Assembly (NCBI GenBank): GCA_030650425.1
Contig: JAUSED010000005.1
Location: 78,932 to 142,931 of the forward strand
Direction of reading: 5' to 3'
Length of the DNA stretch: 64,000 bases
Source: Candidatus Omnitrophota bacterium
GTDB lineage: Bacteria > Omnitrophota > Gorgyraeia > Gygaellales > Profunditerraquicolaceae
Shown: piece after piece, positions 6,001 to 42,000 of the stretch
How positions within the stretch are numbered: the first letter of the stretch is position 1
Layout of the letters: each line of letters starts with the position of its first letter
The notes under the pieces: generated by a model
What the model was told of the DNA's origin: nothing
What the model saw: the letters and a program-made list of their open reading frames with translations, nothing else
The model's database searches: none
Translations under genes and position numbers: made by a program

Positions 6001-9000
6001 ATAAACTGCATAGTTTAAAGACTCCCCGTTATTCCCGCGCTGCTGAGAGGCAGAAAGAGAGCCTTTTACAGGCTATTGATTTTATCCAGAAATCTCGGCT
6101 GCCCAAAGAGGTTCCGGGGATTGTCAAATATTTTATTGATGAAATTTGCCGTTTATATTTACCTGAAATTGTAAAAAGCCGCGAAGAGGGGACGCTTAAA
6201 GGAGGCTTGCCGCAACAATCTTCCCAGCTTGATCCGGAAAAATTTTTTAGCTCACCGGTGGGTCCCGAGGCCGACTGGCGGCGGGCCAATTTCTTACCCG
6301 AGACCTCACTGCTCTTTACTATCTTTTCACCTCAGGAGCAAAAGATGGCTCTTAAAAGATACAGAATCTTAACTCGGAATATGGCAGGGATTATCCCGGA
6401 GCATAACACGCCAGAAGCAGAAGAAACCATCAAGGCAATTTATCTCTACGGAGGGTATCTGTACCATGGTATCCCGACAGACATGGATATTGCGTTTATC
6501 AAATCGGCGAAGATTTCGGTTGAGAAGGACGCAGGGATTTCTATGCTTGCCCAGCGCCTCGCTGACACGGTAAGGTTCCGCGGAAAGGGGTCAGGTTCTG
6601 TTGAAGCGGAGAGGCGGTTGGGTATGACAGTGAATACCCGCCTTTATCTAACGGCAGCGGAATTATGGAATAGCGGCTATCAACTCAGGATGCCGTCTGG
6701 TCGGGAAATCTTTAATTTTGTCAGTCAATTGGTCTGGCCGACAGGGGGGAAGGGAAGTTATCTCGCGCAGGCGATCCTGGCTTTGAACCTATTGGATAAT
6801 ACGGTCTTGACCCGGCTAGGGCTGACTATGGCCGATGTCAGGTTAGTTTACTATGCCAGGGCCTTTTATCTTACTCAGAACCCGCCAATCGATATCCAAC
6901 AGGTTATGGATATCAATAAAAATGTTTGGTCACTGGTTAAAAAGATGAAATGCCAGTTTGCCAGTTCAGTCGTAAATAGAGGGGGTAGAAAGGATGCCTA
7001 TGGTTGTTTAATGCGAACTTTAGTTTCTCAACAACATAAACCTGGCTCCAGTTCACCGGTGGAGGTTTCATCTTCAATCGAAAGCTATGCCGTTGTGACG
7101 GATACTGAAAATAATTCTATAGTTTTTCTTCCCATAGTAAACGGCCCATATATTAGAAACTATCTTGGCACAAAAATAATTAGGGGATTGATTAAAAGTT
7201 TAGACCAATGGATAGGTTTTAAGATAGGCGGCAGGGAAGTACCCACTAATGAAGAAGAGGTTCTGCGTTGCCAGAAGATTTTAACACGATTCGTAATGCG
7301 TCGGTCAATGGGGGAAATTCCCATCGTGTCATTGCGAGCGAACGAAGTGAGCGAAGCAATCTCGACGAGATTGCTTCGTCGCTGCGCTCCTCGCAATGAC
7401 AAATTCCCTGGATCGCCCCCGTTCACTGACGCATTACCACGATTCATCTCCGAGGAAGGGGGAGAGGCAGTTGATTTGTCGACTAAGGGATTTGAAGTAC
7501 ATCTAGTCTTATCTTCGCAAGAAACTTCGAAAAAACCTAAACATCTATCCATAGAGGCATTTTTGGCAGTTAACCAGGAAGGCTATGTTGTGCTTGAGAT
7601 AGCCCCTTGGAATAAAGCAGGCCGTTATTTAGGCTTGGCCCATCAATTAAGGGTTTTCTTTTTTCAAAACATTTTATTGTGGAAATATGACCTTGGGCTT
7701 AAGGCTGTTTATAATATGATATTTACTGTGAGTTATAAGACTATTAACGGGTTAAAAAGAAGCGTATTTTTACCAAAAGACCTGCCAGACTTTATAGCTT
7801 ACGATCTTCCTCCTGTAAATATAGCGGTGATAGAGTCCTACCTTCTATCGTATCTTGTCAAGGAAACAGAGAGGGTGGCAGAGTTAGTGGTGAGAGACGA
7901 TTTAACGAAGAATAAAAAACGTTCTGGCTCGCCTATCGCGGCCTCATCGGTTGAGTCATCCGTTAACGGAACAGAGGAAACGGCAAGCGCGGAACTAAGA
8001 TCTATACTTCATAGCCTCAAGAATAAGTTTCTTTCGCTTGTATATTTTTCTGGCCTTTTGTTGCGTAAGGCTGGCCCCTTAAGAATCGAAGAGGATATAC
8101 CATTATTGAGACTGTTGCGAAATGTCATTTTTCGTCATCCTGAGCGAAGCGAAGGATCTCGTTATCGACGAGATTCTTCGGCCTTCGGCCTCAGAATGAC
8201 GCAAAGTCGGGCATTTCGCAACAGTCCCTTATTGCAAGCAAACAGCCCAATTTCATCCCCAATGGAGTTTCATATCGAATGGGCAGGGGCGCTTGACCAG
8301 AATCCGAAAGGGATTATCAGCGCGGCGGGCGAAAGATTTAAAATCTATTTTAATCTCGTATTTAGCGAATATTTCACCGCAGAAGAAGTACTGGCATTTT
8401 TTCCCGACCGGCTCAAAATAGAGATGAAGCCAAATTTTTACTACAAAGGAATAATCCTAGTGGATAAAATTCAGGTAGTAAATATTTATTCACCTGCCGG
8501 GGAATGGGCAAGGACTAACGACAGAGAGCAGCCAATCTATCCGGAGACCAAAAGCAAGGCCTTTAGGTTAGAGGTGCCATTTTATACCCATGATTCTTTA
8601 ATATTTGATAACGATATACACTGGGAAAAAAGGGAACTTTTGCTTTTTTCTCTGCTGATTAAATTTAAGCATCAGGGAGAAGAGAAGGTTATTGAACTTG
8701 AAGGGTATGGAAAAAGCGGGGCCGGCATAGTTGGCCTCCATTTACCTGCTGTAGGTTATTTTAGCGAAAGACTTAAGCAAAGGCTAGAGAATCTATACAG
8801 CGATTATTTAGGAGGCATTGAAAAAGATAACGCGATAACTCTCTTAGTGTATTATACGGAGGTATTAAAGATAGAATATGCTAAAGAATTACTGCTAAGG
8901 ATTGCCAAGGATAGCAACCATTTAATCAGAAAGGATTTGGCTGTAAGCTTAAGGCAGCTGTTAGCGCATGATATTCACGCAGAGATTTTAAATGAATTAA

Positions 9001-12000
9001 TCAATGACGCCGACAGAGAAGTCAGGGAAGAGGCGCTAGTTACCTATTGTGTATATGCTTTGCGCGGTAAATTTTCTAGTGATTTACAAGATCTAAATAA
9101 CTTACCAATGCGTATCTTTTTTTATGCGAAGAGCCTTTTTGTAAAAGAGGGAGAGAGAAAAGAATTAGTAACGATATTAAAACAACCAACAGATACCGTA
9201 AGCTTTCTTGCTGGTTTTTCCGGAGAAGACTTGCGCGGAGGAATTTACAGTAAGGAGCAAGCAGAAGGCTATATTCGTTTATTTAGAGAAGCGGTTGTTT
9301 CTGAAGTAAAGGGATTTTTAAGCACAATAGAAGCAAGAGTAAGAAGGGTAAGCCTTGATGGAAGCAAGGTTGAAGAGGATAAGAAAACAATTATCAGCCT
9401 GATATCGGAAATGAGACGGGAATTAGAAAGGCGGCAGGCTGGCAGCCCGATTTTCGTAGTTCGAGGCCTATCTTTGCGGCAGTATAACCCCGGTTTCAGA
9501 TTGCTGTATTTATCTGGGCATATTTCCAGTTCGCCGATAACCTCCAGAAGCAACAACATAGCAGGAGCGCCTTTTTCTAAGTCATTTTTACAATGGCTAA
9601 GTGACTCAGGTATAGGATTAAGGAGTCCTCCGTCCAAGCTGCTTGCGGCTTTTGTCTTCCTTGCATATCTAGCCGCATCTATTTTCTCGCCAATAGTAAG
9701 CAGAGCAGATTCAGTTCAAACGCCCTCAGGTGGAAAGGCGCCTCAGGAAATTCCGCAGGAAAAACCAAAGCAAGAAGGACAGGCGTCCTTGAAAGCTCCG
9801 GCAAAGGCCGCTAATGATTTAGCGCAAGTAAAATTAAGCGAGGCAATAACTGCTCTCAAGAATAAAAAGAGGCCAGAGGCCGAAGGATTCCTTAATTCTG
9901 CGAAAGAATATTTGTTCGAGGTTAAAGCCGGTAAAATTGTGGCTAAAATTGAAGATCATAAAACTTTGGTAGAATTTGCGGAGCTCTCAGAGCGCCTTCG
10001 CAGGTTCGATGATGCTATTTTGGCTTATAACGCGGCCGCGGGAGTTGTTGAAAAAAAGGATCCGGATTTAGCAGAATATTACAGGTCAATAGCTTCGTCT
10101 CTCGAACCGTTTAAAAAAGGAGAAACGTCCCGTCAGCCGCCTGCGCCTCTATCTCCTGAAGCTTCTAAGAAAGCGGTAACGTTAAGCCCGGAGGAGCAGG
10201 AAAAGCTAAAAAAGACCACCAGGGCCGCATTAGATAAAATCGAAAGATCTTTAGGGACACCTAAAGGTATCCCGATAACGGATGAGCAAAGAAAGGCGGC
10301 GAAGAAGAGTCTTGATGAGGCAAAGGAAAAGTTAGATAAATCACGGATAACTGACTTTGATCTTTATGCTGAAATCGGCAGAATATATAATTTATTAGAC
10401 TTCTATAAAGAGGCAGGAGAAGCAAACGCGAAAGCGCGGGAATCCGTCGCATCAGACGCAGAGAAAGGATTTATTAAAGACCAGATTCAGAAGAACGAGA
10501 TGGACGAGATGAACGCGCCAATAAAGCGCCCCGGCAGCTCGCCGTTAGGCAGTTCCAGCTCAAAAACCTCAAGCCCTATGGAAGATTATGGAAGATTTTT
10601 GGCTTTGGCGGAAGAAATTAGCAAAGTGATTAAAGCTGCACAGGCCGCCATCTTTGATAAGAATAGAGAACAAGGAGTTTTTGAGCTTTATGCGCAAATA
10701 GAGCACGCCGCGAACTTATTTGAAAGTTTTAAACGAATCTTTCATTCTTTTAGAATCACACCTGAGCTTAAAGAGCATTATACGGAGATAATAGTTGCTT
10801 TAGCAATGAATTTCCCGTCGCGAATTGAGCCAGAGTCAAATCTTATCCGAGGAATGGATACAGGCCTTACCGCAGCTGCCGAAAAAGAATTGAGGGCTAT
10901 TTTATCATATAAAGAGGCTAAGCAGGTACTATGGCAAAAACTGCAGCCGTATATTATAGGTTTAGATGAAATTCCTGAGCCTAAACTCAGCTTAGGCCTG
11001 CCCATGGTGATTAAATCGTTTCATAACCTTGATGAAATAAGATATCTCCAGGAAATGGCTGGTAATTTCGAGCTTCAATTCTGTGTGGTTTCGCCTAAAA
11101 GGACGCCTTATCCTTTACTTATTTTTTCAAAAGAGCTTGGGGGTTGGGCTGAAATAAGGTTTGTGCCTTTTGCCTCTGCGGTGGCCCATACCCAAGCTTA
11201 CTTGATTCCTTTGGAAGCAAGTCAAGAAGACGAAAGAAAGGCAGGATTAGTCAACAGAGTTTATCGAATTCCTTTCCTTGTTTTAGGTTTTGGTTCCGGA
11301 AAAGATACTCATTTGGAAATCTCCTGGTTTACAAAAAATGCGCCTTGGTTTCATTACGAGCGGGAAAATCAGGAAGAAATAGTCCGGTTTTTACGCAAGG
11401 TTAATTTCCTGGAGACATCTTCTCCCCTTATTGATAATACCGGTGAGGAATGGACAGATAGAGAACTGGAAATCTGGCGATTGTGGGCAAAAGGCGTAGA
11501 TCGGGAAGCTATAGGCAAGGCATTAAATGAAGGTGAACGTTTTATAAAAAGGGTCATTTCAAAGATTATAACAAAATTTAATATTTCAAAAAGAGGTCAA
11601 ATAGCGCACTTTATCTCTATTAAGGAGGCAAAAAAGTACGGCATAGATTTAGGTATTAGCTTAAAGGAGGCCTTAGATCAGGATTATCTTGCGGCAATTA
11701 AGCTTTATCTGAAAAATGAGCCTCCAATGGATATTGACAAAAAATTCAACAAAAAAGATTCGTGGTTTTTAAAGGCGGTCTTTCCTGTTATGCTTATTTT
11801 AACCAATATGGATATGGAACCTTTAGATGATAAATTCTCTGATAGTTTCCGCCAACGGATTACGGATGTTTTAATTGAGCAAGGAATTTTGGAAAAAGGA
11901 TTTACGATTAAGCCTAAGGAAGTTTTGAGTGAACGGGAGAAAAAGATTTTGTGGTTGTTTATAGCCGGTTACAATCCAAAAGCCATTGCTTTGACGCTTT

Positions 12001-15000: not shown

Positions 15001-18000
15001 TAGAGAATATAAGCAAGTCTAATCCCAAGCATAATCATCTCTTAGATTTACGTCCAGCTATTCTAAGATACCTTCCTTGTGTCAAGGATCAAAAACGGCT
15101 CGAAGCAATCAAAGCTAATCTTAAGTTAGGCATTGGTGAAGTAAAGCAAGAATTAACTGAAGATGAGCTCATGCGAAAATGGATAGGAACCGCTATCCGT
15201 CGTTTAACCGAAGAAAGAGAAATAACCCCGGTTTCTTCTTTTAAATTACATGCCTTATTGGGGATTGAATATCGAGTGGCTACAAAAGCTGCCCGGCGTG
15301 AAATAGAATACTTAGAAGAGATCGGTTATCTCATTAGAAAGAAGGAAGGGAGCAATGAGTATGAGCTAAATAACACCCATTTAATTTTAATTGTAAAATC
15401 GTCGGTCAATTCATCGCCGTTAGCCGAAGGAGTGTCCCTTTGGGGAGCGTCCCCAATTAGAGTGATGGCCGCGGGCATTGCCCTTATCACCTATCTCCAC
15501 CTTGTATTATTTACTCCTGTTTTTGCCGCGGAGCAAGCTTTAAAAGCTCAGCCTCTAACGATTGCTAACCCGGTAGTCTCGCTCCAAAAAGCTATAACGG
15601 AGAAAACAATACAGCAAACAGGACTCGATCAATTAAAAGTAAAGAAGGCCGCTGATGAGATAAATAAGTATATTGAGGAGCATATTAGGAAGCATAAAAA
15701 AATAGATGAGAAAGAAATTAGCTGGATATTAGGAAAGATGGGAGTTAGTTTCGCGATTATTGATAAGATTATTGCTAATAAGGAGATAAAAGAGATTAAA
15801 ATTCTTCCCAAGTCTCCGGGGGAAGAGATAATAACCATAAAAGTGCCCCCTGTTTTGCTTCCCCAACAAACGTATATCGAGCCTGCCAAGCAAACGCCTC
15901 GTGAAGCAAAGGTAAAAAAACCAACGCCGAAACCAGCAGTTTCTATTAAGGGGGAAGCCGCCATAGCTACCATTCCGCCCGGCACAAAACTTTCGTTGGA
16001 TGACAAGAAAATCACGATTAACCACCTCGTAACTTTGACCAGAGGGCCCGCCGGTATAATAATTACCATAGAAATTCCTCAGTGGGATAAAAATAAGCCT
16101 AGCCGCAGTAAGCTACTGAGTACTTTCAGCGGCGCGATGTTTACCTTATTGCCATTTTTAGGTATCGAGACGAGCCAGACGAATATCGATACTTTTGTGA
16201 AGGTGGTAGCAAGCTGGAACGGAAAAGATAATCCTAATAAACTAAGCCCAAGAGAAAAAATTTCCTATCCTATCGGAGAAGAAAGGGCGGCTGATTTACT
16301 TAAGGCCTTAAAGCCTGCCGCGCAAAGAGAAAAAATAATTGAACCTCCGGTTAAACAGGAAGAACCTAAAGAACCTTCGCAGGAGCAGCCTGCGTTAGAA
16401 AAAGAAGAGCAGATACTGCCGGCTGATGAGGTTAAGCAGCTTTTGGATGGGTTGACAAACGACAAGAACAGGGAAAACAAAGAGAAGATTAAAGAGCTGG
16501 TTACAAAAGTGGAGCGGCTTAGCAAAGAAAGCAGGTTTGCGGATGTTCCCCCCGAACTCGTGCAGAACCTTTGGATTGTGGTTGGTAATTATTATCAAAA
16601 CATAGGAGACGCAGAGAACGCTATTCGTGCTTATAAGGAAGCTGTTGAAGTTGGTAAGAAATTAGCCAAGCCATCTACCGGTCCCTATTCTCTTTTGGCA
16701 CAGCTCTATAAATCCCAAGGCCAGAGCTACCTTAAAGAGGAGCTGGAAGCCCTAATTTCATATATTGAACTGGCGAAGAGGCAAGGCATAGCAACGCCTA
16801 CCGAGGAAAAAAGGCGTAAGGAAATAGAAGATCTGCTGCACGGACAAAAAGTTCAGGCTGACGCAGAGCAAATTATGCAATTGCTGACAGGGGCTTCTCA
16901 GGATGTTGAAAGAAGAGATAAGCCGGCTGCTTTGGATAAAGTTAATCAGGCCATAGGAATTATAAAAACAAACAATATGGTTTTCCCCGGCGCATGGCAG
17001 CTTGCCGGGGAGATTTATTATAAGTTAGGCGATCTTAATCAAGCCCGGGATGCTTTCGCAATCTCCGGAGAAACGCCCGAGGCAAAATATGGTTTGTTTT
17101 TGATCGGGTTCAAGCAAGGCAAATTAGACGAGGCCCTGCCTACTTTGGGAGCCGCGATTGAAATGGCTTCAGGAGATAATAAAGACGCCTATCAAAAAGC
17201 ATTGTATGCTGCCGCGGAAGAATTAGAGAAAAGCGGTAAGCCTGAGGCGAAAAAATATTTCGAACAGATTATTACTTTGGATTCCGGAAGAGCGGGAGAT
17301 GCGCAGGTTAGATTAGGGGATATTTATTATCAACAAGGAGATTTTAAGCAGGCCGCTAAGTTTTATGCGGATGCCTTAAAGAGCGATTCTAGCGATGCCC
17401 GAAACACAGCCAAGAGCCAGCTTGCGCGGATTAGCTATAGGAATTTTATGAGGAGTACTCTTCCTATGCTTTTTGTTGGTTTGGTTTTATTCATTATCGC
17501 AGGAATCTCTGCGGGTAGAAAATTCAAAAATAAATTCAAACAAACATTAGAAAAAAGAGGGATACCTGTTAGCCAAGAGGACTTGGAAGATGAAAAATTC
17601 CAGTTAGAGCAAATAATAGCCAAGCCTGAAGCCCAATGGGTCCGTAAAGCCCTGTTTCCTTGGGGAATGATCACCAGCATAAAAAATTCTTTGAGGAGAG
17701 AGAGGATTAGGGAATTAAATAAATATAGATTTGCGCGTGACGCCGGTTGCGGGGAAGAGGAGGTAAAGAGATTCGAGAGATTGATGGTTGTTTACCGGGT
17801 TACAGGAGAAAAAGGATGGGCAAAGATAATCCCCTATCGCGTTATAGGCTTTATAGGAGGCCTGTCTTATGCCGGAAAAGTGATCTTGCCTCCCGGAAAT
17901 CAGCCAGCCGCGAAAATAGTTCAACTTTATCTTGAGATTGAAGGAGTAGGGATAATATGCAGGCCCGCGACCGACTTTTATGTCGATGAGGCTAAGGCAA

Positions 18001-21000
18001 TTGAAGAACTTAAAAGAAGGCAAAACGCATCCGCGATTAAGCCTAGTTTCAGCTCGCCGGTGATACCGCCAGATCGAGGGACACAATGCTTAATTCCGGA
18101 GGAATCCTCTTCTCCAGCTATATTGCCGCCTCTAGCTCCGCAAGAGCCTCTTGTTTATAGCTTTCAAGGCAGAATAGCGTCAAAGACAGAAGCAAATAGG
18201 GCTACGATAATTCGTGATATGACGATCAATGGTGTTTTCGGATTTAAGCTGATTATAGAGGAATATCAACGCGCCAAAAAATATGATCTGCATATCAATG
18301 ATTCCGACAGTTACCCTATTGGCTGGGTAGAATGGGAGTTTAGAGATGAAGTGCCTTATATTATTTTCATCAAGAGAAGGTTTAGCTATAAAGGTAAAGG
18401 ATTATCAGAATTGTTGATGAGGATAACGTTAAAACATATAGAAAAAATTTATGGCCAAAGAGTAGAAGATACAATAGTTGATTCATTTGTTATTTTTTCT
18501 GAATCTAGCATTGCGCGTATAACCGGATTATTACAGCGCCTATGGTTTAGGGCAGCCAAGGAAGATAAAGAAGCGATAAAGTTCCTGAAGTATCTAAAAG
18601 GCCTCCCAGACCCTTTCAGAGTATCTTCAAGTTCTCCTCTGCCCGGAATTCCCGTAACTTCTTCTCCCACAATTTATTCCGAAGATAATCTAAATAATCT
18701 AAGGACACAATCCTTAATTTCAAGTTTTGGAATTAAGTATTGTGTCCCTGGAATTCCTGGAATTCGGGACAATTTAGAAGACAGAATAATCATATATGAT
18801 GTTAACGGAAGAACAAAGATTATGAAAAAAGATATTAGGGCTAGCATAGTTGACATAGATCAGTTGCACCTTACTTCGTCTCAGAATAGATTGAGCGGAG
18901 GCAGATTTGTTGGTTGCACAGCTTGCCTTTTCTGGGATAACAATGCAGGTATCCATGGGTTTCTACATTTATTTCCTGTTCTTACGGCTGCCGAAGATTC
19001 GATCAAAGGCATTATTCCCGCAATAATCAATAATTTTAAGTTTTGGGGAGGGGAAATAAATGATATTGGTTCAGCGCTTATTCTCGCGCAATGTTCACAA
19101 AAAAATATTGCCCAAGTTTTGTTAGAGCAATTAGGAAGAAATACGAAAGTGGTTTTCGAAAATTTAACTGCCGATCCATTCGCAATAAGAAAACAGGAAT
19201 ATATTAATCGTATTAGCATCGAAAGAAATTTATTCTCTATAGACTTGCCTAAAATTCCTAAGCCTTTAATCTTTTCTATGGTTGACAATAAAAATCAATT
19301 CGTTAGTTCGCCTGTTGCTTATATGCCCATATCATCCCGAGGCGCGAGAAGGCACGCGAGATTTTGGCTGTTAATTAGTGTCGCGGAAATGGCGGGATTG
19401 ATGGTTGTGGGTATTTTAAGCCTGAGGGCCATCGGCACAATCGCCTTAATTACTTTGAGCGTATCAGCTATGCTCTATCTTCAGGCAGGTATTTTAAAGA
19501 AATGGGAAGAAATCATTCTGTCTAATCCTATAAGGGCCGGGCCCTTGAAAAAAGTTGCTTATTTCTACCGCTGGTTAGATCGCGTTGAAATTAATCCTGT
19601 CATTCTTGACCAGCAAAAAGGGCTGAAGTTATACTTTTTGTTCCTTCCTCATGAAGTATTCCATAAACTGAATTTAAAGGTCATTAAAACCTTCCGATCA
19701 ATCTTTCCGAGTTACGGGAAGAAGCTATCCGACTCTAAAACTATAGACGCCTTAGATGAATTTGGCGCTTATTTATTAGGCGCCTTTATTCCCGTGATGA
19801 TTTTAACCTTGCCGTTTACCACCTGTATTATCCATGAATCGTATATAAGAAGGGCAGCGCGCACAAATCGTATGCTTGAGGCGCTAAGGGCATTTGACAG
19901 AAAATACGAACAATTGGGCATAGAAGAACTTAATGAGGAAGAGTTTGGAGAATTAGAGCGGGGTATCATTGAAGAGGTTTTAGATGCAAATGTTGATATG
20001 TATTTATGGAATGAGAATGAACCGGTAAATAGCCAGAAAGGCATTGATCTAGACGAAGAGGCGTGGCTGCGCGGTAGTATAGAGCAATATTTTAGCGTCA
20101 ATGATCCTGCCGCAAGGCAGACGATCTTAAATCTTCTTTTAGCAGAAGAGTCAGAATATGAAAGGAAAGGCGGGTTAGGCTGGCGTTGGTTATTTAAATA
20201 TGATTCTTTAGGGAAGCCGGTAGGATTGCTGGGCCTGCATATATTCGATAGAAATAAGCTTCCTCAAGGGGTTATTGCCGGCAGCCTGATTCAGGAAGAG
20301 TCACTATATGGAAAGGGTTATGTAAACGAGATATTGTTCTGGATAACGGATAAGGGAGACAACGGCTTAAGTATATTTAAGATTACAAATTGGCTTAAAA
20401 ATAAGGAAAAGAGGCATCCCAACTACATTATGGATGGGGATACTAATTATTTACTCTTCGCGTTGTCTGAAATTATGCACCGCATAGATGACAAACGGCG
20501 TATTCTTAGGGAGAAGAGCGAATTAAGAGAAGCGGGGATAAAAGATTTGTTAACCGGCGCTTATAACAGAAGGTATTTAGATGAAAGTTTACCCAAGTGG
20601 ATAAGCGAAGCAGAAAAATTTAAGTATTTTTTCAGCCTGTTAATGCTGGACATAGATTTTTTTAAGGGCGTTAATGATACCTACGGCCATCCCGCGGGGG
20701 ATGCCATCTTAAAAGGCATAAGCGAGGAAATTCAACGCACTATGCGAACGGATATATTCAGGCCTTCTGATGTTTCGTTCCGTTACGGAGGGGAGGAGTT
20801 TTGTGTTATTGCAACATCTAATCTTGAAGGGGCAAAGAAGCTGGCTGAAAATATAAGAAAAAATGTAGAAGGGCTTTCTTTTGTGCTGCCGGGAGTTAAA
20901 AAGCCTGTCAAAGTTACGGTAAGCATTGGGGTAACTGAATATAGGCCGGGTGATGATACCCTGGGCGCTTTGATAAAAAGGGCAGACCAGGCCCTATATA

Positions 21001-24000
21001 AAGCAAAAGAAAATGGCAGAAACAGGGTAGAGGCCTTCGCGGCCTCTTTAGTTAGTTCGCCTATTGAAGGCTCGCGCGCGGATTTTTATCGCCCTAAGGC
21101 GGACAATCATTTGCCTTCTATCCCCAAGGAGAGGGAAGAGGCAATTAGGGGAGAGTTAAAGGGAAATCAGCCGATAACTAATATTCAAAGGCAATTTGTT
21201 ATTGATGTATTGAATGAGGCTCAAGGTTTAGCGAGAGAAGACGTAGAAATTGTACGTTCATTGCGGGGAATAGCTTCTATAGAAATACGCGCAGGGCCTA
21301 TGCCTAACCTTTACGGAGCTATTTATGATAATATCTTATATTTAGACACACTATTTTTCCAATCCCGCCAACGAATAGATTTTCTTCTTACCTTAATTTA
21401 TCTAGCCGGAGCCAGGCTTGGCAGAAAACGCAGGCATAATGAAGCATTTGCCAAGAAATACGCGGCAAATATTCCCAATAATAACCAAACTATAGTTAGC
21501 AGGCCGGAGTTATTCTTAAAACCCGAAGAAGTAATCGTATATTTTAAGCGCGAAGGAGAGAACATTGATAAAATCCAAAAGAACTCTATCTGGCTGCAGT
21601 TACCGGATGAATTTAAGGATTTTACAGTATTGACCCCGGCTCAAGCCCTAACTGAAGGGCTTATTATATTAACGAATAATCCGCACCTAAAGGAGCGCCT
21701 GCAAAATAATATAATATCGCAGCCAGAACGCTATAGAGTGTCAATAGAAGGAAAAGTCAGCGAGGAGGATTTACGTTCTATGTTATCAGGCCGGTATGTA
21801 AAAGCGGCAAGAGGAGAGAATAGCGGAGCTAATAATACTGTGCATATGTGGAAGGTAAAGCCGGATAGCCTAGAGGTAAAAGAACGAAATAAGGATAACA
21901 CAATTTTGGAGATTTATTTTTCCAGAAGAGGGGAACGGGAGATTTTGGTATTATTCAAGAATTTCGGTTATTCAGTGAAAAACATAACCCGGACACAAAT
22001 AGGCCTAATTAGCCCGCAGGATTTGAAACCCGGCAGTTATCGCAGGCTAAAATGGAATGAAATACCGGCCATAGCCGGGCTTTATTTCAAAGATACTTTG
22101 TATGAGCGAAACTTAGCGGTAAAAGAGCAAAAATATGCCCTTGAAGAAACGCAGGATTATGAGGTTATCGACTTCTTATTGAATGATAAAAATGTGATAA
22201 GTGATGTTTTCCAGAATATTTTTATGAGGTTTGATTTGGCCGCCGATAACGGAGAGAGAGAAGATCTTTATTACATCAGGGAGGGGGGGTTTAAAAGAGT
22301 TTACAAAATAGTCTTAAGGTCGAAAAATAACATAGAAAGATTCGCGTTTTTCGTTAAGGTTGTTAAGGCTGATGTTGAAATGACCGATTCTGGTTATCGT
22401 TATGACGCGGAGTATGCTAAAAGGCTTGTTGAGACCGCGCGCTTAGCGCGGCCATTAGCGCGGCAGAAGGAGCTTGATTCCTATCCTCCCGTAGGCGGTT
22501 ATTATTGCGTAAAGGGTAAAAACGGAGAAACAAGGATTATTTTTACAGAGGGCATTATCCCCGCGGCAAACGCGCATTTAACCCCGGATAAGAGAAACCA
22601 GATACTGATCAGGACGTATCTTTTATACTATTATATTTTTGGGAAACAAATATTTTTTGCGGATTCTAAACCGGAGAATGTTATTATCCATCATAAATCC
22701 CAGATAGGATATAGAGGCACGCTTATCGATATGGATAATATTATCTTTAGCGAAATATCCCCAGCCCATCTTGTCCATAACCTGCTTTTATACGGTTTCA
22801 AAGCAAGCGACATTATAGAAGCCTTGATTAAATTCTTGGGCAATCAAGAAGCCCACGATTTCTTAAGGTCAATTATGTTTTTAGCCGCGCAGCCGCACAG
22901 CCAGATTATGATTCCTATAGTAGAAGCGTTTAAAGGTTATAGAGATAGAGGGATATTCCAAAAGGAGGTCAGCGGAAGTTTTAAGATTAAGCAGCCTATA
23001 AAAATAGCTATCAATGATAAAGAAGTGTTAGTACCGGAACGGACAACCCTTCTTGAGATTTTAAATGATTGCTACGTGGATATTAATACGATGGATGTTG
23101 AATTAAATGGAAATCTGCTATCGCTGGGCCCCGGGGCCTTATTGACAAGCGAAAAAAGGTCAAAATATAAAAATACTATTCTAATGAGTAACGACAAAAT
23201 AAAATTCTACAGGGAATCAAGAGTTCACAAGGCTATGCCTAATGAGGTTCCTAAATTTTACACCCCTGCTTTAAAAATAAAATTAAAGCTGCTTAAGGAA
23301 ATGGGGTTTGATGGGCAATTAAAGGCCATGTCAAAAGAATTAATTAAGTTTAATTCCGCGGTTATAGATAAGGCCGTTGTAACGCCGGAGGTTAAGTCTT
23401 TTAGGCTCGTCAGCGGTTCATTATTAAATAACTTTATGAGGTATCTCAAAAAACACAGAAACCATCCTTTTGAAGGCTTTAAGCCGGATATAATGCTGAA
23501 GAGGTTTGACGATATAGATTTTGAAAGGCCGCAAGAAAGAGACAAAATGAGGCCGGTGCTTCAAAAATTACTGGCAGGCTTAAAGGATTCAAATAATACA
23601 TTTGATAGGATTTTTAAAATGTCAGCCGAGGAAGCGCGCGGCAGCAGCCCGGCCATCCAGGGCTCAAAACAACAGGTTAAGATTAAGAAGACAAAAGAAT
23701 TTGAGGAAATTTTGAAAGGAATTGTTTCAAGCCCGATTGCTAAAGAAGAGTATTTAGCTGTAGTGGTTGAGAGGGGATTTTTTGTGCCGGAAGGAATAGA
23801 AATGATAGAAAAAAGCCTTGATAAAGGCATATTGCACCCCGGAACGAAGGTGAGTCCGCAAGATTTCGCTGAATTTATGGAAAATTTTCATCTTAATTCA
23901 GGATTAACCGCGGGCTTGAATAAAATCTCTCGGCTAGCCTATTGGCCAATAAGCGAGAGTAAAAAGATATTTTATTTACCCAAAGAGTTATGGATGCGGA

Positions 24001-30000: not shown

Positions 30001-33000
30001 AGCAAGTCGCGCGAAAAATTCCGCAGAACGCGGTTTATGACGATTTTATTAAAGGGATTGCAGCAGAATTAGGCATTGAAACCCCGCTTGTCAGGCAGGA
30101 GATTGAATTGTTAAGGATAAAATCCGTGGTGCTTAGTTTTTGCGCGCAATCTTCATCCGCCTCGCCAATAAACGCGGATCTCTATGTTAAGGCAAGGCAG
30201 CGCGTTGAAGACACAAGAAACAGAGGCGGCGGTATAAAAGTAGTGTTTCTATGCAACGGAAACAGATGGCGCAGCGCGGCGATGTACCTTTGGACGGCGC
30301 ATTTAGCGGTAGAAAAATGGATTGCTGATTCTGCCGGGATTTATGCCTGGAGCGCAAAAAAGAACATTGCTTTGTTAGAAAAGGGATTAAGAGATCGATT
30401 TAGAGGCTTAGATGGGCGGCAAGTGAAGTTAATAAGGGCAATAGCCGCAAATGATGAGAGTTGGCTCACGAAAAAAGGATGGTTTAAGAGGGGGTTAAAA
30501 AGAAAAGAAATATATAAATTTTATCACCAGTCTGATTTAGAAGCTTGGAAAGAAAAAATTAACCAGAGCTGTCTGATTGATAAGCAAGAGTATCAAGAAG
30601 CTCTCCAAAAACTAAAGATTATACTCAAGGTTCTTGATGAATACCTGACATACGAGATTCAAGTAGAAGAAAACAGCGAGCTTAAAACTATCGCGCGGAA
30701 ATCCGAAATAAGAGCGGGTATTGTTAATGGATTTTCGTCAAAGGTGGGTACAGCAAGCTTAGTTTATGAAGCTACCCTTGTTGTTGTCTCCGACCGCAAG
30801 GTCAGGGATTTTATCCTAAAGTTTTTCCTCCAAGCCAAGGATAGGGTATTTTTATTTAGCGATTTAGTTCCTAAGAAGCATAAAGATTATGCCTCTAAGC
30901 TTTTTTCTGCTGACGGCGCGGATGTTTTAGACCCGGATAAGAAAGAGATTACAGGGGAATTGATGTTTCAATTGATAGGGGATTGTGTTGAAAAGAGTAT
31001 TATGCCTTTAATTACTCCTTCCGCCTCCAGCCCGATTTTTGATGAGCGCGGCTTCGAAGAGTTTTTGGGCCAGTTGAGAGAGCTCGTTAGTTTAGCTGAG
31101 CAAATCCTTCGGCTGCCATACCGGGACCAGGCAGAAGAGCTTCTTTACGCGCGAAGGGATGAAACATTTAAGCTTTTCGACCCTTCAAAAATTATACAGA
31201 TTCCGGATATTTTGCGTAAAACCAACCTTAACTTAAAAGAAGATTATTTGGATTCGCTGATTAAAATTATTATGGCCTTTCCATCGAACATTGATCCTTT
31301 TTGGAGGGATCAGGCCGCGGAAATCCAGAGGAAGTTAGTTGCCTCAAAACAACAAGACTCCGCATTGAGATTAAAAATAGAGGTTATCAATAACCTATTG
31401 AATGATTACGAGAAAGGCCTGGTTTTTGTAGCTGAGAAGGAGTTTTACAGAATGCTTTTAGGGCAAGGCAGGTTGTATCTTTGGAACAAACTGCTCTCTT
31501 ATGCGGCGCCATTAGGCCAATTGTCAAAAAGAAAATTGGAATTGGGATTATTAATGGCGACTAAACCATTTTTAAATCTTAGAGAAGTCCGAAATATACA
31601 GGAATTGGCAGGAGATTTTGAACTGCAATTCACAGTAATTTTTCCCAAAGGCGCGCGCCATCCTCTTGTCGTCTTCTCCAGAGAATTAATGGAGAGGGCC
31701 GAACAAAGGTTCGTTCCTTTCGCGTTTTCCGTAGGCCATACTCACGGATTAGCGGCGAGCCTTGAAGTAGGCCAAATAGACAAAGAGGCAGCTAGGATTA
31801 TTCAATCCTACGGGGTTTCTTATTTCATTTTAGCTTTTGGGCTCAGGCATATTGAGCTCGCGTGGTTTGAACCGAAGACTATGCAATTCGCCTATGAGCG
31901 TGAGGAGCAAAATAAGATTAGCCGCATCCTTGGCGTATATGGTTTATTAGCCAAGATTAGGCGTACTTCCTCACCCATACACACTCAACCGGCCCTCCTG
32001 AAGCAAACCAGGAGAGCGATGGATTTAACTCAAGAAGAATTAGCCGAAAGACTGGAGAGCTATTCGGAATACGATATTTTCAATTTTGAGCGGGGCGCTG
32101 ACTCAATCCCCATAGGTTTATTTACTAATATTAAAGAAGCAATGGGTTTATTATTGCAAGAACTTAGAGAATCCCTAGGCTATACACCCGCAAAGCTGGC
32201 TAAGGTTATAGGCTATACAGAGGTAGATATTCTGCATTGGGAGAATGCTGAGGCGTGGATCCCTAGCGGCGTATTGAGGGATATCAGAAAACGCGTAATG
32301 CCGGAGCGCCTGAGGCAAATAAGGGAAAAAATGGGGTTGTCGCAAAAAGAATTAGTTAACAGATTAGGATTTTTAAATCTGAGCGCTATTACTTTCTACG
32401 AGATCGGCACGGTAAAAATGCCCTTAGATTTCTTGAATAGGATTAATCAAGAAATGGTTATTTTCTTAAGTGATCTGCAAGAGCTAAGGAAAGATTTAGA
32501 TTATACCAAGGAATCATTAGGCCGAAAAGTTGGTTATAGCCGAACTTCTGTCGCGAAATGGGAAAAAGGCCTGCAAAATGTGCCCAGGGGTTTATTCGCG
32601 AATCTACAAAAAGAGGCCGCCCTATTATTGAAAGCGCTCAGAGAATTTTTGGGGTATAGGGCTGAAAAATTAGCTCGAGAATTAGGAAAGGGTTATACCG
32701 AAGAAGGTATTTTACGTTGGGAGGAAGGTAAGGAGTGGATACCCCGCGGCGTGTTAAAAGAAATTAGGGAGCGATTAATACCTTTACGCTTGAGGCAAAT
32801 AAGGAAAGAGGTGATGAATTTGTTGCAAAAAGAATTTGGGGAGAAAGTGGGGTATTCACAAAATATTAGTATCTACCTTCGAGAGAAAGGCAAAAAAAAG
32901 ATATCCCTACACTTATTAAATAAAACCACGGCATTATTTCCTAACCGTTTGGCCGAATTGCTTAAAGCCATCAACGAGGAGTTAGGATTAAATATTACAG

Positions 33001-36000: not shown

Positions 36001-39000
36001 TTCGGGCAGGTAAAGATGCTTACGATATAAAAACAATCAAGGAGGCGCGCAGAGCGGAGAAAGAAATCGTGGATACTCATCTCTGGCTGGTTAAGTTAGC
36101 GGCTATCCGGTATTTAAGAAATATTCAAGGGGTTAAAGAACCGGAGGTTAATCCGTATCTGGGCGATCTTATGCCTAAAGGGGTTTCAAAATTGCTCGAT
36201 ATTATCAGGATCTATGCTTATAAAGACAGGCAGTTTTCTGAAGATGAAATAATAGATGAGCTTGTGGCATTTTTCACGAAAGCGCTTTATGAAGACTCTA
36301 CGGTTTATAGAAAAATCACTTATGTGGAAGCCGCGCGCGATGATTCGGATGAGGCCGGCGATCTATCAGAAATAACAAGAAGTATGGCCGCGGTTGATCA
36401 TAATGCCCCTGATAAGATACTTGAAGACTTGGAAGCGCTGCCGTTAGACGAGGAGGACGCTTTGATCCAGCATAACCTATTGAGCCCTTACATAGATGCC
36501 ATAAAAGATTCTGCAGTAAGGCAGGTTGTCACTTTGGCTTTTCAGGGTTTAAGTATGGAATTTATTACGCGGCGAACCGAACTGAACGAGAAAGAGATCA
36601 ATCAGTATTTAAAACAAGGCGGCCAAGAGATCCAGAGCTTAGCCGGTTTAAAAGATTACGCGGCAGCGGCGAAGCGCAGTGCCTCGCCGGTTTCGGCGAA
36701 TAGGTCCATAGCCTCAAGCCCGGCTAATTCTCCTTCGACAATAGAAAAGATAACTAAAGAGATTGCCAACGCGCTTCAGCTAAGCGGTATTAAATCTCAA
36801 CTAGTTACTCTAGAAGGGCTATTTAATTATTTTAAAGAAGATTATCCCCAATTATTAGAGCCCGGCCGATCAAAAGAAGAGAAGTTCTGGTTATTGTGTT
36901 TGGGTTTTTTTAAGCTTGAAAATATCTTTATGCTGGAATGCGATTTAGGAGGGAAAATTCTTGAACTAAAAAATGAAATCCTGCTTAAGATGAAGAGCCT
37001 GGAAGAATCATTGCTCTCTAGCTATAGGGCCTTTGAGGTGGTTGAGTATTTTAAGCTGGGCTATGAAAATTATCCTTTTGATCTTAAGCGGTTAGAACAC
37101 GAGTCAGGAAAAGAATTCTTTGAGCTTCCTCAGAAACCAGAGAAAAGGGTTTTTGCGGGCGGGTGGGAAAGGCGGTATGCGCAGAAACTTTCTTGTATTT
37201 TCGCCAAGGAGCTACAAAGGGAATGGGAAAGGTTATCGCTTAAGAGAGATTACACCTTAGCGCCTCTTTATACACTCAGCGTAAATGAATTTATAGGAGA
37301 TACTAGGCAGTTTATACATCCTGCGAATTTTATTTACTACGATATGTCATTGTTAGATCCAAATAAAGGGATTACTGAAGCAAGGATTAAACAGGATATG
37401 ATCCTTAGTATTGCCTCTATGGATATTTATTTAGAATGGATAAGCCGGCATTGGGATTCCGACTTAATTAAACAAAAAGGATATACTTGGGAGAAAAATA
37501 GGATAAGCCTGAAATTCATAGAAAAAAACCAATCGCCTAACCTTTCTTTGTTTGGTAGAGCCCTTCCCCCTGTTAAGCTGAGGCCGTCTTACCGTATATT
37601 AAAAAATTTGACTGATGCAGAAGCGCTGGAGATTATATGTGGTACTCGGAGCGATGTTGGTTCTCCTCTAATTAGCCGGGAGCCAATGCGTACAGTTATT
37701 CCTGAAATACAATCTGTCGCTTCGCCGGTTTCAACGCTGGCCAAGGCTATTGGCAGTATTATATTTAATCTTTATTTAATATTTACTGCGCCTATTTATT
37801 CCACTCATCAATTAGTTTATGCGCGGATGCCTTCACAAGGTATTTTAAATATAGTTACAAGGCCAGTGGTTAGACGGTTTGAAGTTTTAAAACATCCGGA
37901 ATATAATGATTCCTTTTTGAATGCCGAAGACTGGCTTAAAGAAGGCAATAAGGATTTTGCGGTGCGGTTTTATTTACTCGGATTCCTTCAAAAGGCGGAA
38001 GTTATGGATTTACCTAATTTCTTAGAAGGCGCAGTAACCCTGGCTCAAGTTGAGGAGTTTATGGCTGGATACTTAGAATCCGTGTTGGAAGGCCTTGAGA
38101 ACTGCGTCGATCCGGTTAACATAGCCCCAATACAGGACTGGATCATTGAGCTTAAGATAGAGGCTTTGAATACTTCCAAGCGGCTATTGTCAAAAGAAGA
38201 TAAAACAAGGATTAGGATAGAATTCATTAAAAGATTGCATCAGCTTGAAGAAGGGCTAAACATAAAATCTCGTCCGCCACCGAAGGATAGAGACACTAAC
38301 CGCGCCCCCGGCATCTTCCCAAATATTGACTGTAGTTCATCCAGCCCTACTTCTTTCTTGCATCAGAATGATGCTAAGGATATCTATTTTAAAATTTGTA
38401 CCAATAATGATGTATTAGCTTATCGGGAACAGATTATCAGCCTTGCAAAGCCGGAGTTCAGTTCTACATATTGGGCTGAATTTATCGAAGACAGCTTTGA
38501 AAGCAAATCAGCGTTGTTTATCCTTATGTTTTCTAAAGAAGAGCTGATAGGTTTGGTTTTAACGCGTGACGGGCAAGATAGCGAGGAGGCATTCATTACG
38601 GCGTTTGTATTAGGCAGCCTCATCAGGCACAATGGTTATGGAATAAAAATATTCAGGACAGCCATCAAAGCGCTTAAAGACAGGAAATATACCTCTCTTT
38701 TTTTGATAACTGAGGAAGAGGAATGTATGAGAGGCCTGCTTGAAAGATTAAGGGCGTCGGCTGATATTATTAATTTAGAAGGCGGCAGGCCGGTTAGCGA
38801 TTACCAGTCATTCGCCAAGTGGTTTAGAGCCTATTTTCCTGGCAGCCCATTACCTAATGGCCCCGCCGCCTCGCCGGTTTTGGGAAAAATAGAGCCGTCC
38901 CCTATTTCGTCTTTGGCGATAGGGATCCTTAAAGAAGCCAAGGAACGGCTTAAGGAGTTTTTGGTGTTAAAAGTAGTTGTGGTTGGCATAATAGCAGCTG

Positions 39001-42000
39001 GAGTTATATTGGTAGCTATAGCTTATCTTTTTTCATTTATATATCGATTTTTCTATTTCTTTCTCAGAGATGCTCCAAGGCCGAATCTTGTTGAGCAGGC
39101 TAAGTCAAGAAGAAACAGCAAGAGACAAGATAAAGGAAAATTTTCAAGCTCTCTGGGAGCCATCGGAGCCTTTAGGGAACTTTTTAGCATAGATAATGAA
39201 GAGGTGCCTCTTGAGAAGATCCCAAGATTGATGAATAAGAAATGGGTAGATGAGATTGAAAAAGGCAACAGAATTATTGATGTGAAGACGAGGACTCTTG
39301 TTGTCCTAACAGTGCCATTTAATGAAATAGCCGACTTAAATATAGAGTTGAGTACTTTAGAGGTTGAAAGCTGCACAATGATTAGTTTCAGGGGTAGAGA
39401 TAGAGAAGGGAATATGGTTTTGGGGTTAGGCCATATTTTTGAGCCTGCGCGTAAACTGCAAGATTTTTCAGTTTTTGTTGTCCGGGCCCTATTGTCTATT
39501 CTCAAGGCTAGAGGCGTACATGAATTAGGCATGCTTATCCGTTATGACCCAATTTTCACCCAGCTCCCTAAAGAAATCATCAAAGGATGCAAGCATTTAT
39601 TCAAGAGGCCGGCTATAATTTTATCGAGAGAGAACAACTTAGTGGAAGATGTTATCGTTACTCCAAGAGGGGTAACGCGGGCCTTATACCAATATATAGT
39701 ATATGAAAGTGCCGGCCGTGGTTTTATTAGTCGAGAAAAAGTTGTAACTTTGTTTTACAATTGGGGTACCTTTAACACTGCCGCTTCGCCTATGCATACC
39801 CCGGATGAGGATAATAAACGAATATTTATTGAAGTAAATAACTTATTTAAGCAGGGCCGATTTAGAGAGGCCGTGGGCAAGTTGAGAGAGTTATTAAGTT
39901 ATCCTCTCGTTAATTTGGACAGGGCAAAGGCTTTGCATATGCTGGGAAGTGCCTTTATAGGATTGAAAAAGCCTTACACTGAAACAATGTTCTGTTTGGA
40001 TTCAGCCTTGCGCTTACTTAAAATTGATAACGTCCAGACACAAGAGTATTTGGATTTAGAGCTAGACATTAGTTTGGGGTTGGGACTTACGTATAATAAA
40101 TTAGGGCTTCCGGATAAAGCGCTTGGATGTTTCGAGAAGATAATAGAAGGATGTAACGACAAAGACATGCTTGATGCCGCGCGTCAAAGTATGCTGGAAG
40201 CTTATTTGATTAAGAAAGATTTTCCTGTTTTCTTTGATAAATTAGGCGATTATTTAAGCAGTAATTCAAATATAGATATAAGAGATATGACCTCCGTCTA
40301 TATCCTTGTGAATAGCTACCACCGTTATTTGGATGAGCATATCGATGAGGCAGGGATCCGGGGGGTTATTTTACTGGCAGAATTTTATTTCAGGCGCGCG
40401 GAAGAGTTATTAACCAAAGAAAAGATAAAGAACCATTCAGAATTTGACCTTTATCAGGCAGGAAGGGTTACCGCTGGTTTTGCTTTTATTTTCCTGCATC
40501 TTTACGCAAACAGCGATGTTCTGCGGGATAGGCACATCGCGTATTATTATAGCGGCAGATGCCTGCTGCATATAGCATGGTTTAAGGAATATTATTTAGC
40601 CAATGTGAATATAATTTTTTCCGCAGAAGGCCTAGAGTTAAATTTGGAGAATATGAAAGAAGTTTTGTCATTGGCAAGCGATTATCTGCTGGATGCCATA
40701 TTGATTGCGGAAAACGATGCTAAAGGCTCCGACGTAAGCTTTGTGAAAAAGGTAAAGGCTACCTTTTACGCGATATCTAATAAATTGAACTCTTTCGGGA
40801 TTTCATCTAGCCCCTTAGATGACGATAATCATAAATTTGAAATATTGCCTATGTTTTTATTAGTATCGCAAGGCGGTTCCGCCGCCTCGCTGGTTTCGGA
40901 AGAAGGGGGAGTATTTATTTCTTATCCTTCATCGGTTGAAGAGAAAAATCAATCCGTTAGTTCATCCATCACTGCGGCAGAGATAGCTGGCATATTCCTT
41001 GAAAGAAGCTGGCTTTCTATTTTTCCAGCAGCTCTTTTCTGGGCAGGTTATTATTTGTTTAAACTTCGCAAGAACATTGAATCTCAAAAAACAAGTTTTA
41101 ATTATTTATCCGTAAATAGCCAAAAGCTCTTCGATTTCAGGAGATTAATCCCTCAAGATAAAAAGGAGGTAATTATCTTGGCATCAATAGCCCTGATAGG
41201 GCTTACCACTATTGTTTTTCCAAGCCTATGCAGGGAGATTATACAGCTTGGCCAAGTAGTTAATCATCATCATATCTGGAAACTTCTTAATTATATTGTT
41301 GGAACGACAGCTGTAATGCGGGCTATTATGGTAGGAAGCAGAACGTTTTTATTTTCCGGAATATATTTCTTTTCAATGATAATATTTTCAGCTTTATGCT
41401 CGGTCTTTATCTTAAATAATATAACCTTATACGCTTATGAGTGCATTTTTGGCAACTTTAAGGCCTTTTTAGTCTTTATGGGAGCATTTTTCATAAGCGA
41501 TATTGTTGCTATGTTCAATAGGTTGATTTATAAAAAGGAGACAATAGGAAAGAAGAATGGTAAGCATTCATTAGGCGATAAAATTAACAGTAACGAAGCA
41601 AGTCCTACTAAGGAAATAAATTCCGGGACCGGCGCAGCTCATAATGTTAAGATAGCTCCGTCTTCTACCCGAACCAAGGCCAGCCAAGAGTTCCTATTGA
41701 GATATCTCCAAGAAACGAAAGAAAAGATAAACCGAAAGGGCCAAGATTCTAGTTCGCCTTTAGAAAATAAAGTTAATTCAGTAAATAAAATGGATGGCTC
41801 TATTTTGCCAAAAGACAACCCCGCCGCCTCGCCGCTGGCGGAAGAAATTGCGGATTGTAAAGTTACGATGGCCGGCTCATCCAGCCCTATTGACAATCCT
41901 GAAGCCTGTAACATTAATGCCGCTGAGATTATGCATAGCTCTATCCTTATGTTTTTAATTGAAAACCCTTATAAAGAGGTTAATCGGGTAAAGTTAAGCA

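Follow-up and report, generated by a model that had tools for sequence, protein, structure and literature searches.

The DNA analysed here, hereafter the window, is a 64,000-nucleotide stretch of a Candidatus Omnitrophota bacterium (contig JAUSED010000005.1 of assembly GCA_030650425.1, positions 78,932 to 142,931 of the forward strand) that is covered by a single giant open reading frame (ORF), within which a short junction peptide, [SA]SP[VIL], recurs between protein-sized modules. We found that hydrophobic segments with the character of targeting signals cluster directly after this junction. Taking all segments and junctions unselected, and defining a strong hydrophobic segment by a Kyte-Doolittle mean of at least 1.6 over 19 residues, 8 of the 20 strong segments begin within 30 residues downstream of a junction, versus 1.9 expected, a count that none of 5,000 circular shifts reached. 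Of the 12 hydrophobic modules, 7 have their first hydrophobic segment no more than 40 residues from the start (1.7 expected; P = 2e-4). A cruder, home-made scorer of signal peptides and transmembrane (TM) segments gave the same direction, with 14 of 69 junction cuts positive versus 7.4 for random cuts (P = 0.014). The clustering of hydrophobic signals at module starts is statistically solid. About 20% of the modules have a signal or TM start, which is a proteome-like proportion. The most coherent mechanism, in our view, is that of a polyprotein-like giant ORF whose modules would be released at the junctions and then targeted separately, a reading to which we give slightly better than an even chance.

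The giant reading frame and its junction peptide

The frame that carries the modules is as follows:

3-63998, + strand: uninterrupted reading frame of 21,332 codons, running past both ends of the window

Frame +3 contains no stop codon, whereas each of the other frames contains 800-2000 over the same 64 kb, and in an ORF listing just four ORFs, all short, lie wholly within the window. Matches to Pfam follow one another in frame along the full length (HATPase_c, HD_4/RelA_SpoT, GerE, GGDEF, XRE-type helix-turn-helix (HTH) and GNAT, and further radical SAM, metallophosphoesterase, M48 peptidase, two PrmA-like methyltransferases, LOG and several TPR blocks). The open frame and the domain matches all along it indicate a genuine coding frame that extends past both window ends. 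Like the giant ORFs of Omnitrophota, the window has one ORF exceeding 10,000 codons, with numerous TM segments and a mixture of Pfam domains. Guanine-plus-cytosine (GC) content of the window is ∼41%; GC skew is above zero in each 2-kb bin (0.04-0.26) and the cumulative skew climbs monotonically, which fits a single long transcription and replication orientation.

The junction [SA]SP[VIL] occurs in 62 copies, compared with 1.9 expected from shuffles of the window frame, and permitting G at the first position raises the count to 69 against an expected 2.9. Its logo, [SAV][SAG]-S-P-[VLI], has G, R or P frequently three residues upstream and E or D downstream, and is unconserved beyond that. The motifs divide the frame into 70 pieces (median 271 residues, mean 305), 51 of which are at least 100 residues long, and at ∼15 boundaries two or three motifs stand 8-48 residues apart. 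Moreover, no junction falls within a Pfam or NCBIfam domain match (0 of 69 motifs, 7.2 expected; P = 4e-4). The arrangement is that expected of a polyprotein, with a recurrent short boundary motif separating independently folding, protein-sized units.

Module ends are shown, by model alignment and where full-length models exist, to coincide with the natural ends of stand-alone proteins. Position 2 of the SpoT model aligns at module position 6, as does position 6 of the model for a HipB-like HTH; ApaH-like and radical-SAM models begin 20-60 residues past a junction, and GGDEF models stop 6-10 residues ahead of the next one (module position 571-574 of 579). Two modules that have no Pfam match (residues 3516-3809 and 10346-10659; nucleotides 10548-11429 and 31038-31979) are paralogues of 36% identity, the alignment spanning ∼255 and 286 residues and reaching the C-terminal end of both, which suggests that the module is also the unit of duplication. 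An earlier analysis of this DNA (the original prediction) had proposed that the modules derive from formerly independent genes. The 51 gene-sized pieces, the avoidance of domains by junctions and the natural protein ends agree with that proposal, which we regard as well supported by the sequence.

The junctions also have a signature in the DNA. Their Ser-Pro pair is encoded by TCG-CCG in 35 of 69 cases, versus ∼1 of 64 other in-frame Ser-Pro pairs; TCG makes up 12% of serine codons overall, and AGC and other serine codons are used at junctions as well. The use of several serine codons points to selection on the peptide, together with an additional and unexplained preference at the codon level, for which a translational pause or shared descent is possible. 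A repeat search detected the junctions as the DNA repeat families CCGCCGCCTCGCCG[CG]T and AGCTCGCCGGTG, for example at 38859-38889, 41817-41847 and 53079-53109. The longest high-identity DNA repeat of the window is a 65-nt 'double junction' cassette present at 54835-54899 and 61291-61355 (91% DNA identity), the copies of which read SSPV-EKTVGATVVTRGA-ASPL and SSPL-KEIVGATVVTRGA-ASPV. A palindromic or two-strand DNA site was ruled out (of 41 copies of TCGCCG on the + strand 36 are in frame, and the opposite strand has 11), as was RNA structure, four junction regions folding no better than shuffles (z −1.4 to +0.1). Of 82 instances of [SAG]SP, 69 are followed by V, L or I and just 3 by M, which excludes the [VIL] residue as a fossil start codon. 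Many junctions of the window read AA-SP[VL], and a cut before the serine would leave the upstream module ending in ...AA.

Signal-peptide-like segments and putative membrane anchors at module starts

Four signal-peptide-like segments lie just past junctions, as the original prediction had stated with coordinates correct to within a few bases. They are listed with their junctions and, for the first, with the TM segment of the same module (a slash marks the putative −3/−1 cleavage site):

15411-15458, + strand: double junction, SSPL (15411-15422) and ASPI (15447-15458) separated by the 8-residue spacer AEGVSLWG
15459-15527, + strand: signal-peptide-like segment judged by hydropathy and flanks, consisting of R, the core VMAAGIALITYLHLVLF (15462-15512) and the c-region TPVFA (15513-15527)
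17454-17516, + strand: TM segment STLPMLFVGLVLFIIAGISAG with K/R-rich flanks, net charge +4 before and +6 after
9528-9539, + strand: junction SSPI
9636-9707, + strand: signal-peptide-like segment K-LLAAFVFLAYLAASIF-SPIVSRA/DS, 33 residues past the SSPI junction
57375-57542, + strand: junction ASPV, a 26-residue spacer and KGNK-FLTLTSAFLIFLTSFHLYL-SPLRAYA/N (57453-57542)
37719-37802, + strand: junction ASPV, then STLAK-AIGSIIFNLYLIF-TAPIYS (37746-37802)

In all four the sequence looks like that of a Sec signal peptide, the division between signal peptide and anchor being a matter of judgement. Each n-region has its positive charge 1-6 residues from the core (K, R, K and KGNK), and the uninterrupted hydrophobic cores are 16, 17, 13 and 19 residues long. 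Small residues occupy −3/−1 in every c-region (SRA/D, VFA/A, AYA/N and IYS/T), although this rule is permissive and alone non-significant. An [ST]-P follows each core, corresponding to the proline that Sec and signal peptidase I substrates carry ∼5-6 residues before their small −3/−1 residues. The segments differ from Sec signals in location, lying 3,200-19,150 codons into the open frame without internal starts, and also in their longish cores and in the two long n-regions that a cut at the junction would leave.

The segment at 15459-15527 begins one residue past the ASPI junction and has its putative −3/−1 site, VFA/AEQ, after nucleotide 15527. TPR matches at residues 5485-5800 fall between it and the TM segment at 17454-17516, all within one module, which gives the stretch 15459-17516 a predicted type-I-like membrane-protein architecture of signal-peptide-like start, TPR and TM. 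The segment at 9636-9707 lies 33 residues after its junction, so its n-region would be long. Downstream of the segment at 57453-57542 is a TPR block (residues 19201-19401). The original prediction had likened the TPR block after 57456-57549 to a stand-alone secreted TPR protein, a likeness in architecture (a signal-like start followed by TPR), 57387-58340 having given only weak generic TPR matches. At 37746 the positive charges are on the C-side and a GNAT domain follows, and an N-out anchor is at least as likely there as a cleaved signal peptide. PDB sequence searches with three signal-peptide-bearing modules returned nothing useful.

Putative membrane anchors follow other junctions:

38868-39044, + strand: junction ASPV (38868), and 31 residues downstream the TM segment VVVVGIIAAGVILVAIAYLFSFIY (38973-39044; Kyte-Doolittle 2.94)
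48930-49085, + strand: junction SSPI (48930), and 29 residues downstream the TM segment VGAMYILFIAAWIVFGIIG (49029-49085)
56361-56429, + strand: junction SSPL, and 1 residue downstream LTVGLSIIISYALLVPVF, the first TM segment of a polytopic module
19305-21026, + strand: junction SSPV, an R-rich stretch, TM segments at 19368-19496 and 19761-19835, and a C-terminal GGDEF domain

The first three confirm the anchors that had been predicted after junctions at 38871, 48933 and 56364. The module at 19305 was absent from that earlier list; its first TM segment lies 14 residues past the junction, and its GGDEF match stops 10 residues ahead of the junction at 21054. The positive flank is on the C-side of the segments after 38868, 48930, 56361 and probably 37719, and they resemble N-out anchors more than cleaved signal peptides.

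Module chains in related proteins

An exhaustive HMMER search with residues 12230-13270 of the frame returned 21 proteins, mostly of 1,000-8,000 residues, and reading of the related long sequences indicated that they also consist of modules in series, every protein having a junction peptide of its own. In protein P0002 the junction is G[ARSGKH]SLG (27 copies, mean spacing 296 residues) and in P0018 it is [LV]GCFFGLP..A.T (11-12 copies, mean spacing 294 residues), while other relatives, P0021 and P0006 among them, seemingly use K[AP]SS[AS]G or SHDGS.PEPSP, as judged by eye from the sequences. In the window a conserved 'FxGQWERDYA...LEWxSRHW' module lies between ASPV and GSPL, and its flanking junctions in P0002 are GKSLG and GASLG. 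P0015, a probably complete, stand-alone protein of 351 residues, ends six residues past the same last helix of this module, which is the place of the junction in the giants. The DNA of P0002 (locus L002, from a Candidatus Omnitrophota metagenome-assembled genome (MAG)) encodes its junction with five serine and six leucine codons, and holds a full-length cytidylate kinase (profile positions 1-209 of 211) exactly between two G.SLG junctions (L002:4202-4954, ORF residues 1139-1389). That junction peptides differ among the giants, and that synonymous codons encode them in L002, fits a recognition site at the protein level.

P0018 and P0020 contain relatives of the domain past the 37719 junction, and each carries a hydrophobic segment at the equivalent place, ahead of the conserved domain; in P0018 this segment directly follows that protein's own, different junction. 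The three giants are ∼30% identical, and retention of the segment across such divergence argues that it is not a decaying fossil, which makes the 'fossil' gene starts of the original prediction doubtful.

One module family of the window was found in three Candidatus Omnitrophota MAGs and in four otherwise-labelled MAGs, labels among the latter including Planctomycetia, Chromatiaceae and Endomicrobiales. Rescanning metagenomes with the module alignment yielded five more loci but no new junction types, and the homologue search gave no matches for the region 7938-11429.

Several further traits of the relatives were noted. The cytidylate kinase of L002 is a housekeeping enzyme embedded as one module of a giant ORF, and P0002, like the window, has recurring short spacer mini-modules with its own junctions on either side. 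The junctions of several relatives read small-x-small with Ser or Thr at the putative P1 position; speculatively, such a pattern might be compared with sites typical of Ser/Lys-dyad peptidases. Many related long ORFs (P0001, P0004-P0009, P0011-P0015 and P0021) end in ...AA or ...FA before the stop codon, those of locus L003 finishing with NIKQAA and NIKTAA, an ...AA ending that many window modules would share if cut before the junction serine; the same ORFs start with a conserved signal composed of M, K/R, a hydrophobic stretch and N-D-x-[SA]-[FYW]-A-x-A-P.

Proposed release at the junctions and its alternatives

On the polyprotein reading, ∼50 gene-sized modules, each a complete ordinary protein (regulators, enzymes, membrane proteins and exported TPR proteins), would be joined in frame by the short lineage-specific junction peptide, here [SA]SP[VIL], and a dedicated putative protease would cut the chain at or near the junctions. 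The post-junction segments would then serve as the N-terminal targeting signals of the fifth or so of modules that are membrane-bound or exported. Modules with an N-in start (15459-15527, 9636-9707 and 57453-57542) would enter Sec and be trimmed by signal peptidase I, and the short N-terminus of N-out modules (56376, 49029 and probably 37746) would be free when they insert into the membrane. Membrane topology adds a weaker argument, which rests on crude hydropathy TM calls and suggests cutting at the junctions. Exactly one strong hydrophobic segment (residues 3213-3233) lies between a cytoplasmic-type SpoT module and the GerE HTH, and with this odd number an uncut chain would put the GerE DNA-binding domain outside the cell. 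Likewise, a free N-terminus would be needed by the TM segment that starts one residue past the 56361 junction and is positively charged on its downstream flank.

One protease domain was found in the 64 kb of the window:

49263-49655, + strand: M48 metallopeptidase domain (Pfam match) with HEITH at 49443-49457 and two TM segments

This domain is flanked by the junctions ASPL (49230) and GSPV (49719). The HtpX-like M48 unit as a whole (48930-49730) is seemingly split by a junction, with a TM segment in a 100-residue piece, then ASPL (49230), the catalytic domain with two TM segments, and GSPV; either the motif can sit inside a former gene or the protease is made as two pieces.

Several points count against release at the junctions. 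The M48 domain is without any tie to the junction motif, and no cleavage products, protease-substrate link or N-terminal peptides have been observed. With 13-19 residues, the h-regions are intermediate in length between those of typical signal peptides and TM helices. In two of the four signal-like segments a junction cut would leave n-regions of 26-33 residues, which is long for Sec, and the GNAT domain of the 37746 module argues against its export. The module at 15459-17516 is topologically consistent without cleavage, and the parity counts above depend on crude hydropathy-based TM calls. No homologues of the module at 15423-18050, with which its signal might be compared, were found in an index of 5.8 billion proteins, in genome contigs or in metagenome contigs. 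Finally, the enrichment of hydrophobic segments after junctions was non-significant in P0002 and P0018 (P ∼0.16-0.22), where segments are few and the comparison underpowered.

The first alternative is an uncut, giant multi-pass membrane protein, in which the signals of former genes act as internal start-transfer, signal-anchor or stop-transfer helices and the junction is a flexible linker. Internal signal and signal-anchor sequences do function in polytopic proteins, and the argument of the original prediction that signal peptides only make sense at an N-terminus was overstated. The signal-peptide, TPR and TM module (residues 5154-5838) has even parity and would work without cleavage, and no protease is tied to the motif. 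An uncut, membrane-anchored architecture with many TM helices is, moreover, the published reading of such proteins, and the TM density here, ∼1 per 1000 residues, matches the published figure of 147 TM segments in 147,155 residues (Nielsen & Lui 2026, bioRxiv 10.64898/2026.06.07.730766). Against this, the strong hydrophobic segments that separate the SpoT module from the GerE HTH are odd in number, and several junction-proximal TM segments are N-out, a topology hard to reach with thousands of upstream residues attached. A linker, furthermore, needs no strictly conserved, lineage-specific tetrapeptide that uses both serine codon families, and West-Roberts et al. (2023, bioRxiv 10.1101/2023.11.21.568195) themselves report implausible localisations for uncut chains. 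We consider an uncut chain unlikely, albeit a serious contender.

A second alternative, that the hydrophobic stretches are non-functional leftovers of decaying genes or simply buried helices, draws on the permissiveness of the −3/−1 rule, on the lack of homologues of the 15423-18050 module and on hydropathy matches that are not TM segments. An example of the last is the 'TM' at residues 18030-18050, a false call on the conserved GGxGT region of the second of two tandem LOG (TIGR00730) domains in the module at 53100-54380. Decay or chance is, however, hard to reconcile with the strong positional enrichment after junctions, with one segment conserved across three ∼30%-identical giants, and with highly diverged orphan modules that still keep a charged n-region, an uninterrupted core, a proline and small residues; exposed 20-residue hydrophobic stretches would also be costly in a cytoplasmic chain. 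We rate this explanation as very unlikely. Still less credible, to the point of being highly improbable, is a stop-less operon in which ribosomes restart near each junction and the signal peptides are true N-termini of separately translated proteins. Gene-sized modules would suit it, as would an in-frame GTG-ATG at 15462/15465 with GGAG 13 nt upstream of the GTG. Yet the frequency of ATG within the 10-60 codons that follow junctions is 0.0087-0.0167 versus 0.0149 overall, ATG, GTG and TTG together are not enriched over background past junctions, and Shine-Dalgarno-like motifs accompany 20% of starts near junctions versus 17.5% overall. At 9528, 37719 and 57375, three of the four signal-peptide-like cases, the stretch from junction to hydrophobic core lacks any in-frame start codon; methionine is scarce after Ser-Pro, and no stop codons exist to free an upstream ribosome. 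The internally initiated modules considered in the original prediction thus found no support in the search for ribosome-binding sites and start codons.

Whether giant Omnitrophota genes yield one protein or many pieces is an open question in the literature. West-Roberts et al. (2023) described giant genes with many TM regions and suspected cleavage from the presence of C39 and S8 domains, the cleavage points being unknown. Nielsen & Lui (2026) defined class 1 'multi-enzyme' giants with a Pfam 'Module 1' and ∼1 TM segment per 1000 residues, and suppressed signal-peptide calls on internal chunks as chunking artefacts. Published proteomics on V. archaeovorus is sparse. The window resembles these giants in its ORF of more than 21,000 residues, its TM density, its mostly orphan sequence, its cytoplasmic-type Pfam domains (HATPase_c, HD, GNAT, methyltransferases, radical SAM, GGDEF and TPR) and the presence of its module family in Omnitrophota MAGs. 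It differs in that C39 and S8 domains are reported there, whereas SecA-DEAD, C39 and S8 domains were not found in the window, and in that the published products are treated as one membrane protein or their cleavage is left open. A recurring junction peptide or a polyprotein goes unmentioned in both papers, and searching the literature in full text for polyproteins together with Omnitrophota returned nothing. Giant ORFs are thus known, and their gene-by-gene, junction-delimited organisation with targeting signals at the level of the module appears to be undescribed in the literature searched.

The closest mechanistic analogue would be the polyprotein of Flaviviridae. In C-prM-E-NS1 signal peptidase cuts at the internal signal sequences, and the viral protease cuts the remaining boundaries. 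In both systems one ORF would give several mature proteins (the mature products being proposed in our case), internal hydrophobic signals with small-x-small sites would send what follows them into translocation, and other boundaries bear a short, lineage-specific site, whose role in cleavage is here a proposal. Flaviviridae, however, are eukaryotic viruses with polyproteins of fewer than 4,000 residues and both proteases known, whereas the window is cellular, at least five times longer, carries ∼50 modules and is known from sequence. Bacterial precursors cut into several products also exist, such as the Porphyromonas gingipains RgpA/Kgp and the Mycoplasma adhesin precursors. These share with the proposed polyprotein a single bacterial ORF giving several functional polypeptides, but their products are a handful of functionally related surface proteins, in contrast to the dozens of unrelated, mostly cytoplasmic-type modules and the uniform junction peptide seen here.

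In its general form, the hypothesis that some Omnitrophota-like bacteria express dozens of ordinary genes, from housekeeping enzymes and regulators to membrane and secreted proteins, as a stop-free polyprotein, with lineage-specific junctions cut by a co-evolving protease and modules sorted individually, is one that we advance tentatively, at somewhat less than even odds. If true, it would parallel viral polyprotein expression in a cellular organism, with some modules using Sec via signal peptides that become N-terminal only after cleavage. It would also supply the missing cleavage points of the giant genes, the lack of which had blocked their module-wise analysis (West-Roberts et al. 2023). 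Signals at module starts, lineage-specific junctions that avoid domains and natural module ends now make the hypothesis directly testable. Most domains of these proteins may be assigned to the wrong location when topology is predicted on whole chains and internal signal-peptide calls are discarded.

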